From: Myxococcota bacterium | GTDB taxonomy: Bacteria > Myxococcota_A > UBA9160 > SZUA-336 | Direction of reading: 5' to 3' | Assembly (NCBI GenBank): GCA_965247115.1 | Contig: CBDFGR010000002.1 | Coordinates: 1,568,001 to 1,632,000 of the forward strand | DNA: 64,000 bases | Shown here: one piece after another, positions 57,708-60,910 of the stretch | Position numbering within the stretch: the stretch's first letter is position 1 | Layout: every line of letters starts with the position of its first letter | The notes under the pieces: generated by a model | Databases searched by the model: none | Seen by the model: only the letters and a program-made list of their open reading frames with translations | Told to the model about the DNA's origin: nothing | Program-made: the position numbers and the translations under genes

Positions 57708-57736
57708 TTGACGTCCGTTGGTCAACGTGCTATAAT
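57708..57736 (+). promoter_or_regulatory. Near-consensus sigma70 promoter
   Basis: TTGACG-N17-TATAAT. Confidence 0.75.
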
Positions 57737-57756
57737 GCTCGCGCTTATTTCGAACC

Positions 57757-57783
57757 AGCCCGCCTTTCGGCGGGTTTTTTGTT
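57757..57783 (+). terminator. Intrinsic terminator
   Basis: GCCCGCC-TTTC-GGCGGGT followed by TTTTTGTT. Confidence 0.8.
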
Positions 57784-57836
57784 GCTCCGATATTTCGCTT
57801 TTCCTCGGAACTAGGTACTTAGCGCACAGGCCAGTT

Positions 57837-58478
57837 CTACCAGCGTGCGGGTTTTGTGAGCGCGCGGCCTCCTGGTAGCACCAGTGGATCGGGGAACTGG
57901 TGCTGGAGATAGCGAGGGGACTTAAGCTTGAACGTGTGTCCCGGGATCAGCTTTTGGAGTTCTTGGTTCTGTCTTGCGAAGGGGAATGCGAAGAAGATCG
58001 ATTTCTCAGGATAGAGAGCTTGGGCAGTCCGCACGGCAGGGGCTAGATCCGTGTCGCCAGTCACCAGCACTGCGATATCACATTGGTCTGCATCGAAGAT
58101 CTCAAGAAGCCTGCAGGCGATTGCTACATCGGTTTCCTTTTCTTCGTATGCAGGTCTCTTCTGCTTGCAGACGTTGCACCACACTTCCTTGAACTTGAAC
58201 CGCCCAAGCTCGACACGCACACCCGTGGATTTGAGCGCTTCAATATATAGTTGGTGTCGCGCGGTCGAACCCGGTCGATAGTGGTCTCTGTGGTCAGCGA
58301 GCGCTGAGAAGTAGTAGATCCTCTCAAGGGTCGCAGTTCGTCCGATCACGGGGAGACACGACTCGAGCAACGATCTGAGATTCAGCCACCGCGTGGATGG
58401 ATGCTGAGGCAACCTCCGCTCGATCTCCTTGGCGGAGTGATAGACGTTGAAGCCGTCAACGAGGAAGACGGTCCGCAC
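57837..58478 (-). CDS. NYN (LabA/DUF88, PIN-fold) domain ribonuclease
   Basis: Motifs FLVDGFNVYH, YYFSA, EEKETDV.IA, LVTGDTDL.PA; acidic catalytic residues intact; internal CxxC. Confidence 0.92.
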   Translation of the reverse strand: MRTVFLVDGFNVYHSAKEIERRLPQHPSTRWLNLRSLLESCLPVIGRTATLERIYYFSALADHRDHYRPGSTARHQLYIEALKSTGVRVELGRFKFKEVWCNVCKQKRPAYEEKETDVAIACRLLEIFDADQCDIAVLVTGDTDLAPAVRTAQALYPEKSIFFAFPFARQNQELQKLIPGHTFKLKSPRYLQHQFPDPLVLPGGRALTKPARW

Positions 58479-58494
58479 GCTAGCCCCTTAAATC

Positions 58495-58553
58495 GAGAAA
58501 CCCCCCAGGCCTTAGCCTGAGGGGGACCAGCGCGCCCGTAGGCCCGGCTGGGG
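58495..58553 (-). ncRNA. Candidate structured leader RNA (two hairpins) upstream of the NYN gene
   Basis: CCAGC..GCC-UACG-GGC..GCUGG, then CCCCUCAGGC-UAAG-GCCUGGGGGG-UUUCUC. Confidence 0.5.
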
Positions 58554-58609
58554 ATGATGTATATTACTTATCGTCCCAACGCTGCGGAAGTCAAGTGGGG
58601 ATTTCACCG

Positions 58610-58647
58610 AACTCTGCTAAACGGGTGATCACCCGTTTAGCAGAGTT
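58610..58647. repeat. Perfect spacer-less 38-bp palindrome
   Basis: AACTCTGCTAAACGGGTGA|TCACCCGTTTAGCAGAGTT. Confidence 0.95.
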
Positions 58648-58720
58648 TCCCTTATTGTTCAAGGACGGTCTACTCTTCCAATGTATTCAGTACGTTATGG
58701 TCGCAAGCTTCCGCTTATCG

Positions 58721-59725
58721 CTACTCCAAAGGGGATGATCCCGGCAGAGATCTGACTGGCTCTCGGTATCGGAGCCGCTTCCCCTCTCCCCGCTGGATCG
58801 CGCGCACGGTCCGCGCCCCATCGTCCAGCCCTCGCGTGTTGTAGCGGTATTCGAACTCGCTCACGTAGCGGTGCAAGTGCTTCTTGCTCACGCTGTGGAA
58901 GGTCCCGTACATGCCCCGCTTGATGAGCGAGAAGAAGCCCTCAATGGTGTTCGTGTGAACGTCTCCCCGGACGTACTCGCGGGCTCCGTGCTTCACCGTC
59001 TTGTGCCCGCCCATGAACTCCATTCCCACGTAGTCGTAGGACCGCTCCTCATCCGTCATGACTCGGGCGCTGCGATCCACGAATCGCCGCAGATTCCCCA
59101 TGAGGTTGTCCTTGGTGACGCGATCAATGACCTGGGTGCGAACCTCGCCCCCGCGCTCAACCACGGCAAACACGGGCGTCTTGAGCGTGGCGCGCCCGGT
59201 AATGCGCTTGCCTGGGAGGTTGCTGCGGCCCTTGTAGCGCGGCTTGCCACCGACGTAGGTCTCATCGGCTTCGACCGTGCCCGTCAGCTTCCCTCGGGGC
59301 GTCTTGGGCATGGGAGCCATTGCCCAGCGGATGCGGTGCATGAGGAACAGAGCGCTCTTGTAGCTCAGGCCAGTCTCGCGCTGGATCTGGAGCGCGCTGA
59401 CACCTTTCTTAGAGCTGCACGCGCGCCAGAAAGCGTGACACCAGATCCGAAGCGGGATCCGGGAGTCTTCGAAGATGGTCCCTATCCGTACAGTGAATTG
59501 GCGCTTACAGCCCTGGCAGCGCCACAGGAACCGCTTGTTCCGGCCCCCCTCGCGATCCTGCATCTGGTAGACGCTGGTATCACCGCAGCGGGGGCAAGCC
59601 GGGCTCTCGCCCCACCGCTGTCGCTCGACGAACTCCACGGCCGCGAGTTCGTGCCGGCATGCTTCAGGAATCTGAGCGAGCAGCCCGGAACGGGCACCTC
59701 CGACCTTGCCTTGACCCTTTGCCAT
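58721..59725 (-). CDS. IS1595-family transposase
   Basis: Zinc ribbon CPRC...CQGC, HTH (KKGVSALQI.RE.G.SYKSA), VEADETYVGG, MTDE, HTNTIEGFF, Y..EF.YRYN. Confidence 0.95.
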   Translation of the reverse strand: MAKGQGKVGGARSGLLAQIPEACRHELAAVEFVERQRWGESPACPRCGDTSVYQMQDREGGRNKRFLWRCQGCKRQFTVRIGTIFEDSRIPLRIWCHAFWRACSSKKGVSALQIQRETGLSYKSALFLMHRIRWAMAPMPKTPRGKLTGTVEADETYVGGKPRYKGRSNLPGKRITGRATLKTPVFAVVERGGEVRTQVIDRVTKDNLMGNLRRFVDRSARVMTDEERSYDYVGMEFMGGHKTVKHGAREYVRGDVHTNTIEGFFSLIKRGMYGTFHSVSKKHLHRYVSEFEYRYNTRGLDDGARTVRAIQRGEGKRLRYREPVRSLPGSSPLE

Positions 59726-59731
59726 GTGAGT

Positions 59732-59760
59732 ATTGTAGTAAGTTCAATTGGTTGCGTCAA
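59732..59760 (-). promoter_or_regulatory. Sigma70 promoter, probably giving a leaderless transposase mRNA
   Basis: Minus strand TTGACG-N17-TACAAT, 6 nt before the ATG, with no RBS. Confidence 0.75.
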
Positions 59761-59872
59761 GTAATAAGATATTCAGGGTGAGGCCACGACTTAAGAGCAT
59801 TAAGCCCGTAACACGCGAAAAACTGGCGTATTGACGCCAGGGAACCGATAATACGGCCGAGTCTTAACCGGG

Positions 59873-59959
59873 TCCCCCGGGAGGGGCTCGAACCCTCAAG
59901 ACGCGGATAGCGTCGCCCGGTTCCAGACCGGGTGCGTTTGCCAATTCCGCCACCGGGGG
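59873..59959 (-). tRNA. Atypical class II tRNA(-like) gene: Leu-type body, anticodon TGG (Pro)
   Basis: 7-bp acceptor CCCCCGG/CCGGGGG with A73; D-arm GCG-GAATTGGCAAA-CGC; anticodon arm CCCGG-TCTGGAA-CCGGG; V-arm GACGC-TATCC-GCGTC; T-arm GAGGG-TTCGAGC-CCCTC. CCA is not fully encoded (ACCC). Confidence 0.85.
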
Positions 59960-60063
59960 GTGTCCTAGGCGGATCCGGGGAACGGAGAGGTGGGTGGCCA
60001 ACCTGAGCCTCTTCGCCCCCGGACCCTTGGGATCAGGGACGACTAGACGCCCCTAGCGGTATT

Positions 60064-60534
60064 TCATAGGCGAGTTTCCTCCTCGTGTTGCTCCACTATC
60101 TGAGACTGGATGAGTGGTCCTCCCTCCAGCGTCGTGATCGCTTCGTTGATGCGTGATCTGGGGAACCACCACCTACCGTCGCTTCGCTTCTGCGAGTCGT
60201 AGACCTGCCGAACAGGGATTCCGATCTGGTGGAGGCGCTTTTGGACTAAGGCCATCGCCGACCCGGTGCCCTTGGCGCTCTTCATGTGGAATCGCTCGGC
60301 CATTTCAGAAGCTGAAGTACCTCTCAGCCCAGCTTCGGAGATGAACCTCAACGTTTCCACAGCCTTGTGCATGGAGTCCCCAGACCTCGGAGCTGATCCA
60401 TTTCCTCTGGGCTTCGGAGTATCGGAGGTCGTCCTACTCTGGGTGGACTCCCCATACTTGCGAATCAGACGATCGAGGTCCGCCTCCGTCTCGCAGTGGA
60501 CGGAGAGCCCTCGGATCGTCACTCTGTATCCCAT
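60064..60534 (-). CDS. Hypothetical protein, possible winged-helix DNA-binding domain
   Basis: Purine-rich RBS. C-terminal TLRFI...G.RG.SASEMAERF...GSAMA.V...L pattern is HTH-like. Confidence 0.6.
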   Translation of the reverse strand: MGYRVTIRGLSVHCETEADLDRLIRKYGESTQSRTTSDTPKPRGNGSAPRSGDSMHKAVETLRFISEAGLRGTSASEMAERFHMKSAKGTGSAMALVQKRLHQIGIPVRQVYDSQKRSDGRWWFPRSRINEAITTLEGGPLIQSQIVEQHEEETRL

Positions 60535-60655
60535 GACTCTTCCCCCCCCTGGGCATCGACGGCGCGCGTGTCGCCGACGGTCCTTAGGCTTTAGCACGAG
60601 AGTCTGATGTGGCGCAACATCTGACTAGTGATCTGATACCCCATCCGGAGGTTTT

Positions 60656-60829
60656 GTGGCGCACAGAAAGAAGAGACCAGGCCCAGACCCAGAGCGAGTG
60701 AAGATCGAAGGCGACTGGGAGGAAGCCGTGGGAGAAGCGCTGAAGAAGCCGCGACCCGAGGACGGCTGGCCCAAGCCCGAGAAGGGCCAGGACGAGAAAG
60801 AGCCCGAGGAAGACTCCTCGGACTCCTGA
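60656..60829 (+). CDS. 57-aa small protein in the IS1595 element
   Basis: Absent from the ORF track. GGAGG RBS then GTG; MAHRKKRPGPDPERVKIEGDWEEAVGEALKKPRPEDGWPKPEKG... Confidence 0.6.
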   Translation: MAHRKKRPGPDPERVKIEGDWEEAVGEALKKPRPEDGWPKPEKGQDEKEPEEDSSDS

Positions 60830-60910
60830 TTTTTCCGTGGCCTAGCGGTGCGGGGGATGATCCTAGCGCTTGTGCGCTAAGTCCATACTTCCGCTTTTCC
60901 TTCGTTTTGA

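Follow-up and report, generated by a model that had tools for sequence, protein, structure and literature searches.

A recently mobile IS1595 element with a leucine-type tRNA predicted to decode a lock codon in its own transposase

Positions 57806-60893 of a 64,000-nt window from a Myxococcota bacterium (GenBank assembly GCA_965247115.1, contig CBDFGR010000002.1) are a genuine, recently mobile cargo element of the IS1595 transposon family, and its conserved cargo is a tRNA gene with a leucine-type body, a long variable (V) arm and the anticodon UGG. Comparison with related elements suggests that this tRNA is probably a leucine-inserting suppressor, which would open a lock codon (CCA, residue 323) in the element's own transposase. 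The transposase itself is a more likely partner of the tRNA than the NYN-type RNase gene carried by the same element, which a preliminary description of this DNA had joined with the tRNA in one module. The features on which the argument rests are the following (window coordinates).

57798..57805, left target-site duplication (TSD) CTTTTCCT, exact 8 bp, for which empty alleles are known
57806..57831, left terminal inverted repeat (TIR), 26 bp
58721..59725, minus strand, IS1595 DDE transposase of 334 aa with Zn ribbon (DDE_Tnp_IS1595, E 7.5e-40)
58757..58759, minus strand, CCA codon, residue 323, at a conserved C-terminal Leu site (predicted lock codon)
59666..59668, minus strand, CCT codon, residue 20, a mid-helix Pro (second candidate lock site)
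59732..59760, minus strand, sigma70-like transposase promoter, 10/12 consensus
59823..59840, minus strand, terminator-like hairpin and T run after the tRNA
59823..59852, plus strand, candidate promoter for an antisense transcript back across the tRNA (weak here, score 4.9 vs a family mean of 6.8)
59873..59959, minus strand, class II tRNA gene of 87 nt, anticodon UGG at 59923-59925 (Rfam, 49.7 bits)
59971..60026, minus strand, long hairpin just 5' of the tRNA (z -1.8 vs shuffles)
60868..60893, right TIR, 26 bp
60894..60901, right TSD CTTTTCCT

Ends, transposase and mobility of the element

By its ends and its enzyme, the window element is an ordinary member of the IS1595 family. It is ~3.1 kb long, and its TIRs at 57806-57831 and 60868-60893 (26 nt each, 85% complementary) are bracketed by an exact 8-bp duplication, CTTTTCCT on both sides, as the preliminary description had noted for TIRs and TSD. 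The family traits, taken from sections of PMC8101967, are all present: TIRs, an 8-bp TSD, an empty site, and a single transposase with a DDE_Tnp_IS1595 domain and an N-terminal Zn ribbon. The enzyme passes the NF033547 cutoff and has D154, D225 and E262 in place. Foldseek returned only distant DDE integrases and transposases for it, none of them suited to judging residue 323, and a plasmid search only distant transposases (about 38-44% among the best 30 of 45). The TIR starts with CGG, the ISfinder signature of the ISNwi/ISNha5 groups, to which the window element may belong. Members of these groups that carry passenger genes share with it the single DDE transposase with N-terminal Zn ribbon, the TIRs, the 8-bp TSD and variable cargo; the window element differs from them in the conserved non-cognate tRNA inside its ends and in the matching codon at a conserved Leu site.

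The preliminary description had proposed a search for the joined flanks, and this search found an allele with a single TSD. Contigs in two of four runs from one sample join position 57795 to 60892 and lack 3096 bp, equal to the element plus one TSD; read depth over the empty form was 10.7 and 3.6 in these runs, while the filled form reached about 4-5. The flanks also adjoin in a same-genus genome (G358), where a single degenerate 8-mer marks the empty site. Together with element remnants in the host genome, the empty alleles indicate that the window element was recently mobile, and the earlier view of it as a mobile IS1595 cargo transposon is upheld by its ends, its intact transposase and the empty allele.

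The tRNA family

The window tRNA combines a Leu-type body (A73, A15-U48, G18G19, A20a and a class II V arm with an 18-nt V region) with the proline anticodon UGG, and had rightly been called chimeric. It has C33, C1-G72 and A37, stems of 7/5 rather than the 8/4 or 9/3 acceptor/T stems of allo-tRNAs, and no encoded CCA end. After itself and its second copy, the host's four tRNA-Leu genes are its four best matches there. The V-arm geometry of 1/2 unpaired, seen in the window copy and in 54/98 family tRNAs, is that of host tRNA-Leu CAG and CAA.

The family was collected by a pattern scan that fixed the Leu-type D arm, UGG, a long variable region and the U48-adjacent T stem, and left the acceptor stem and base 73 free. 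At least 120 metagenome loci (about 210 estimated) and three viral loci were found; counts out of 100 in this text refer to distinct tRNA genes among the scan matches listed (at least 100 genes). A73 is present in 99 and U48 in 100 of these, all with A15-U48, while position 1-72 is G1-C72 in 87 and C1-G72 in 7, and C33 and G37 occur in 21 and 37, respectively. In a subset of 40 genes out of these 100, pairing is seen in 99.5% of the 800 stem cells, with 198 double changes vs 56 after shuffling; there are 62 GU pairs vs six AC pairs, which marks the tRNA strand as the structured strand. As described in passages of PMC9976931 and PMC2377443, leucyl-tRNA synthetase (LeuRS) of E. coli requires A73, A15-U48, G18G19 and A20a and ignores the anticodon, while bacterial prolyl-tRNA synthetase (ProRS) needs G72, G15-C48 and G35-G37. 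The family carries the LeuRS identity set, so charging with leucine is predicted, presumably by the LeuRS of the host. Of the ProRS marks the window tRNA has G72, but it departs from the tRNA-Pro pattern in A15-U48, A37 and the 18-nt V region.

The tRNA is closely associated with IS1595 transposases, one of which lies within 2.5 kb of 38/65 distinct tRNAs with fetched flanks and near 16/19 of those with at least 2 kb of sequence on both sides. At eight other loci (seven distinct), TIRs and an 8-bp TSD enclose the tRNA together with a gene for a 57-aa protein that is also present in the window element. Among 24 GTDB loci found by transposase, three have an 87-88-nt UGG tRNA just behind the gene and two have an NYN gene. 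The Leu body also occurs with UUA, UGC, AGA, UCC, GCC and AGG anticodons in the viral and genome sets. A pattern without a fixed anticodon matched 3/401 genomes centred on Acidobacteria, one with UGC twice and the others with UGA and AGA, and, in two other phyla, 1/301 and 1/401 genomes, in each case the centre genome itself. The family is therefore uncommon among genome sets, and on plasmids the tRNA had just two weak matches.

Several related tRNA genes stand apart from this pattern. Lone Leu-body tRNAs without IS1595, prophage-like or IS1-linked, were seen at L173, L181, L197 and L211, at L193 and L208, at L202, at L189 and L242, and at L225, L239 and L240, with UUA, UCC, GCC, AGA and UGC anticodons. 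Short tRNA-like genes (67-73 nt) with the Ala marks G3-U70 and A73 occur at L001:7109-7175, L003:6926-6992, L042, L058, L143 and L225; those of L001 and L003 have a UGG loop, the others stand in tandem 5' of a Leu-body tRNA, and the L001 transposase has CCA at residue 20. At L149:996-1082 (G223), a tRNA with a Ser-type body (G73) and the Leu anticodon CAA lies ~400 bp upstream of an IS1595 transposase.

Predicted lock codon, proposed decoding model and competing explanations

The proline codon CCA makes up 32% of Pro codons in 34 tRNA-linked transposases, vs 9% in eight GC-rich tRNA-less transposases and 10% in the host, and this excess is site-specific. At the last position of the C-terminal motif RLxYxx[X], tRNA-less transposases have Leu in 16/22 C-termini, while the 46 tRNA-linked C-termini have CCA in 29, another Pro codon in three, Leu in four and another residue in ten. 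After re-deduplication, Pro at this site is written CCA in 28/31 cases, compared with 5/108 at Pro columns conserved across the family. The rate is independent of how close the tRNA lies (16/25 adjacent vs 12/19 elsewhere), and the residue that follows is hydrophobic or Thr in 19/28 sites with CCA and 38/39 with Leu. Residue 20, in a predicted helix (14-24), behaves similarly, with CCA in 22/25 Pro-bearing relatives that have the tRNA. An initial test on Leu-majority columns found nothing, the tRNA-bearing rows having dominated the column.

Loci found by transposase alone provided a further set. Among its 103 distinct C-termini CCA occurs at the site seven times, six of them with a UGG Leu-body tRNA. 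Leu is present in 36, and for none of these was a UGG tRNA parsed (one has AGG and one is unclear). CCA stands at residue 20 or 322-324 in 11/12 UGG elements vs 8/104 without tRNA, and in 7/8 when the four UGG elements seen earlier are left out. For L152 and L254 the CCA was noted first, and the tRNA, missed by the first detector, was found on closer inspection. Other anticodons are matched by other codons. Two elements, L330 and L381, carry a UUA tRNA within their TIRs and TSD and have a stop codon at the site, TAA and TAG, respectively, followed in each by Val; the two are 44% identical. Wobble lets an ochre anticodon read UAG as well. L306 has CCT at the site and an AGG tRNA, and L239 has GCG and a UGC tRNA. 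Across these relatives, the anticodon matches the odd codon at a position that is usually Leu, which suggests that the element likely uses its own tRNA to make working enzyme.

Other causes of the CCA were considered and rejected. Overlap with the antisense promoter is not the reason, since the rate is the same where the tRNA is distant and distances range over 20-78 nt. Nor is a +1 frameshift at the CCA, since frame 0 keeps the family pattern and the +1 frame yields Leu-[TVIL] in only 1/43 Leu/CCA sites. The 57-aa open reading frame (ORF) was discarded as a lock target (its CCA codons are scattered over true Pro positions, with no Leu alternation), as were the IS1-like transposases beside such tRNAs, none of five showing a lock. 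A separate, tRNA-less IS1595 class has NCT or NTT at the same site, and there the +1 frame restores Leu-[TVIL] in 27/54 non-Leu, non-CCA sites; its members, which include L259, L263, L266, L269, L314, L320-L323 and L326, often continue KPRT...RFxRW. This looks like a programmed +1 frameshift or an overlapping ORF at the same position.

In the mechanism proposed here, host LeuRS would charge the element tRNA, which would then compete with host tRNA-Pro(UGG) and place Leu at CCA-323 in a fraction of the transposase molecules. A need for leucine at residue 323 is assumed in this model: if only the Leu323 form is fully active, such enzyme would arise only where the tRNA is present; true prolines, written CCG or CCC, would escape Leu insertion. 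Low tRNA levels, which an antisense transcript would maintain, would limit both transposition and harmful Pro-to-Leu mistranslation in the host, the outcome being low, condition-dependent transposition. A wider proposition, to which we give slightly better than even chances, is that an IS1595 clade has a private code. Leu-charged suppressor tRNAs with swappable anticodons (UGG, UUA, AGG, UGC) would be paired with a matching codon that hides a needed transposase Leu and with an antisense RNA switch; transposition would be tied to the state of translation, of which proline starvation and the loss of host tRNA-Pro are examples, and in sister lineages a +1 frameshift would serve at the same site.

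The comparisons appear to make a well-supported case for a novel form of control over a transposase. Transposases of the IS1 and IS3 families are controlled by programmed frameshifts, and phage-borne suppressor tRNAs read recoded stops in late genes; these recoding systems likewise place an active enzyme behind a low-efficiency decoding event. The window element would differ from them in its key, a suppressor tRNA that the element itself encodes and that reads a single sense or stop codon, the pair of codon and anticodon being exchangeable. Within the limited coverage of the literature searched, no report was found of a transposon-borne suppressor tRNA matched to a codon in its transposase. 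The allo-tRNAs and irregular tRNA polycistrons of Mukai et al. (PMC5389517) are comparable in that they comprise class II bacterial tRNAs with a mismatch of identity and anticodon, located near mobile and toxin-antitoxin genes, and allo-tRNAs are proven missense suppressors in E. coli. According to the sections of that paper on which we draw, allo-tRNAs have 8/4 or 9/3 stems and mostly Ser identity, while the window family is canonical 7/5 with Leu marks; UGG, proline and transposase do not occur in its main text. Nematode nev-tRNAs, which also have a V arm, are leucylated despite their non-Leu anticodons (passages of PMC3333845 and PMC4300185), but they are eukaryotic and chromosomal, have no known target codon and caused no mistranslation that could be detected (PMC4300185, in part). 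If the proposal is true, no transposon had previously been found to supply the decoding key to its own transposase, and natural non-cognate bacterial tRNAs, hitherto described without a function, would gain a concrete target codon. The proposal predicts sense-codon mistranslation that is deliberate, regulated and carried among soil and sediment bacteria by mobile DNA. The family would also be a resource for genetic-code work, as a natural source of predicted suppressors: about 100 of the Leu-type missense kind and two of the ochre kind.

A decidedly unlikely alternative is that the tRNA is charged with proline or acts outside decoding, as a supply for a rare codon or as a passenger, and that the CCA is a translational-speed signal or an inherited relic. 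The window copy does carry ProRS marks (C1-G72, A73 and UGG), C33 is found in 21/100 family members, CCA remains in the tRNA-less L290, L296, L260 and L265, and some irregular tRNAs are charged yet unused in translation (PMC5389517, in the part relevant here). Against this, the family as a whole has G1-C72 in 87/100, A15-U48 throughout and G37 in only 37, CCA is used at only 5/108 true Pro sites, and two elements, as distant as 44% identity, combine a stop codon at the site with a Leu-body tRNA whose anticodon is UUA.

The surroundings of the tRNA may point to antisense control. Scored with a weight matrix of approximate sigma70 frequencies on sequences related to one another, the region just 3' of the tRNA averages 6.83 on the antisense strand vs 2.86 on the sense strand and 3.5 after shuffling (n=97), a signal that none of 46 host tRNAs has. 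Antisense -10 matches cluster 0-14 nt from base 73 (56 vs 2-9 per 5-nt bin further off). A hairpin 5' of the tRNA is found in 72/97 cases vs 25 after shuffling, with a U run of antisense type in 21/97 and of sense type in two. The promoter motif of this putative cis-antisense unit is enriched across the family and weak in the window copy, and a cis-antisense RNA may control the level of the tRNA. The same layout would suit an RNA-RNA toxin-antitoxin or abortive-infection system, in which a mistranslating toxin tRNA puts Leu at host or phage CCA codons, a labile cis-antisense RNA restrains it, and the transposase codons have merely adapted. In keeping with this are the antisense promoter at the tRNA 3' end with its antisense-type terminators, the scarcity of CCA among true transposase prolines, the occurrence of the tRNAs without IS1595, and the retention of the tRNA in a transposase-less copy on host contig C3. 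Allo-tRNA missense suppressors also killed E. coli when induced and lie near toxin-antitoxin systems (passages of PMC5389517). A toxin system would, however, leave unexplained why one conserved transposase site carries a cognate codon, including TAA and TAG, that changes with the anticodon, and empty alleles are common in the same sample (depth 10.7 vs 4-5), although other tRNA copies exist there. It is unlikely as the explanation of the whole, but it is compatible with a suppressor acting on the transposase, and a toxin role as a second function of the tRNA is a live option.

A number of observations weigh against suppression at CCA-323. The codon is not always accompanied by the tRNA: L290 and L296, both complete, carry CCA at residue 20, but no tRNA was found in them, nor near L260 and L265, which have CCA at 323. 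Some pairs are mismatched, such as L251 (UGG tRNA, TAA at the site) and L294 (AGG tRNA, plain Leu); L306 also fits the +1-frame class, and L258 has Ala at the site without a tRNA. Among the tRNA-linked C-termini, 10/46 have another residue and 4/46 have Leu, and only 33/104 tRNA-less rows have Leu, so the residue is not strictly required. In the AlphaFold monomer residue 323 lies in low-confidence coil, with a predicted local distance difference test (pLDDT) score of about 65. The window copy is itself atypical. With C1-G72 (7/100, a ProRS mark) and C33, its tRNA may accept some Pro or decode weakly; its transposase has CCT at residue 20, and the score of its antisense promoter is only 4.9. 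Such tRNAs are also found at loci without any transposase and next to IS1-like transposases that show no cognate codon at a Leu column. Finally, the elements are related to one another, so that p-values overstate, and nev-tRNAs, although leucylated in vitro, cause no detectable mistranslation (PMC4300185, in part).

Passenger genes, remnants and neighbouring loci

The rest of the cargo, and a shortened copy elsewhere in the host genome, comprise the following features.

57837..58478, minus strand, NYN/PIN-like RNase gene of the PADLOC HEC-09 family (PF01936, E 1.9e-10); variable cargo
58501..58560, minus strand, two-hairpin leader 5' of the NYN gene, the second hairpin terminator-like
58610..58647, perfect 38-bp palindrome, with an imperfect version at the deletion joint of the C3 copy
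60064..60534, minus strand, winged-helix protein gene, 156 aa, upstream of the tRNA in the same orientation; variable cargo
60656..60829, plus strand, gene for a small basic protein, 57 aa, conserved (GPxPExLKIxGxW...KRPxxGWP family)
G000:C3:768804-769846, transposase-less derivative with the imperfect palindrome at its deletion joint and one extra base in the tRNA T arm

The NYN gene recognised in the preliminary description was confirmed (PF01936) and matches the HEC-09 profile end to end (E 4e-43). HEC-09 was chosen as a defence candidate, and its sole tested member gave no phage protection (bioRxiv 10.1101/2024.01.29.577857, in the portion used here); the window NYN fits the HEC-09 profile over its full length but differs from a defence gene of this kind in being transposon cargo, defence not having been seen for the tested member. 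The preliminary description had proposed a mobile addiction or defence module centred on RNA, with the tRNA-like RNA as decoy, antidote or substrate. A module of this kind, for addiction or against phage, that joins the NYN RNase to the tRNA or to the leader RNA is highly improbable, and any NYN-centred module is unlikely. NYN genes are found within 2.5 kb of 5/65 distinct tRNAs, in these cases within about 130 nt, and four of the five tRNAs belong to one subfamily; the window NYN has a hairpin leader and its family was picked as a defence candidate, and the C3 copy keeps the tRNA while its NYN gene is broken by a 32-bp deletion, all of which would suit such a module. The pairing is not conserved, however, and was rejected, as was the conserved nuclease-RNA co-occurrence of a type III toxin-antitoxin-like module. 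No NYN gene is present in the eight other complete tRNA-bearing elements or in the 17 transposase-found loci with a Leu-body tRNA. When homologous transposases were surveyed for co-occurrence, as had been suggested, NYN was found in 1/18 tRNA-labelled vs 2/102 unlabelled loci and was not linked to the tRNA; the sole case is L001, whose tRNA-like gene is a different, short one. In the window, NYN and tRNA are 1.4 kb apart with the transposase between them, and in the single published test, cited above, HEC-09 did not protect. The NYN and winged-helix genes appear to be exchangeable passengers, while the emphasis of the preliminary description on RNA was well placed, the tRNA being the conserved cargo. 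At L030, L054, L065, L092 and L113, one tRNA subfamily stands head-to-head with an NYN gene, with no IS1595 transposase nearby; in this order, transcription antisense to the tRNA would extend into NYN.

The NYN leader and the long hairpin 5' of the tRNA both exist as described, but their stability is only modest (z -1.7 and -1.8 vs shuffles). A leader-like unit adjoins NYN on the opposite strand in L001, a weak match with 50% column identity over four sequences. The 38-bp palindrome is perfect, as reported, and is the longest of eight perfect palindromes of at least 24 bp in the 5.2-Mb genome. Apart from the tRNA, an Rfam scan gave only a Trp_leader match below threshold, which lies outside the element. 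The ORF described earlier as HTH-like is modelled as a small N-domain and a winged helix (pLDDT 86), the fold being predicted and the Foldseek matches only weak ones to ArsR/MarR (best E 6.6e-3). The 57-aa ORF proved to be a conserved family, found near 17/65 distinct tRNAs with fetched flanks; among transposase-found loci it goes with the tRNA (11/18 tRNA-labelled vs 5/102 unlabelled). It has no Pfam, NCBIfam or PADLOC match, and atlas searches with the 156-aa and 57-aa ORFs gave only hypothetical clusters, with DUF6416 on 15% of one cluster. Other cargo near such tRNAs includes DUF5343, IrrE-like peptidase, P63C, GNAT, SecB-like and HTH proteins.

Remnants of the element are present elsewhere in the host genome. 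The transposase-less C3 copy, with its tRNA kept and its NYN gene broken, is deeper than the full element in run X2, and host contig C2 carries two left-end fragments of the window element. An island on C2 (G000:C2:761830-781000), behind tRNA-Sec and tRNA-Thr, contains IS1-like, IS256-like and IS1595 transposases, a methylase, HicAB-like genes and two outward-facing left ends of the window element. A further host IS1595 (G000:C3:2511455-2512411), in which no tRNA was found, has CCA one codon past the lock site and could be served in trans by a tRNA. Just outside the left end of the window element, at 57708-57785 (plus strand), a strong promoter (11/12) is followed by a ~45-nt unit and a terminator, all kept in G358; this may be a host small RNA, with the element inserted directly behind it.

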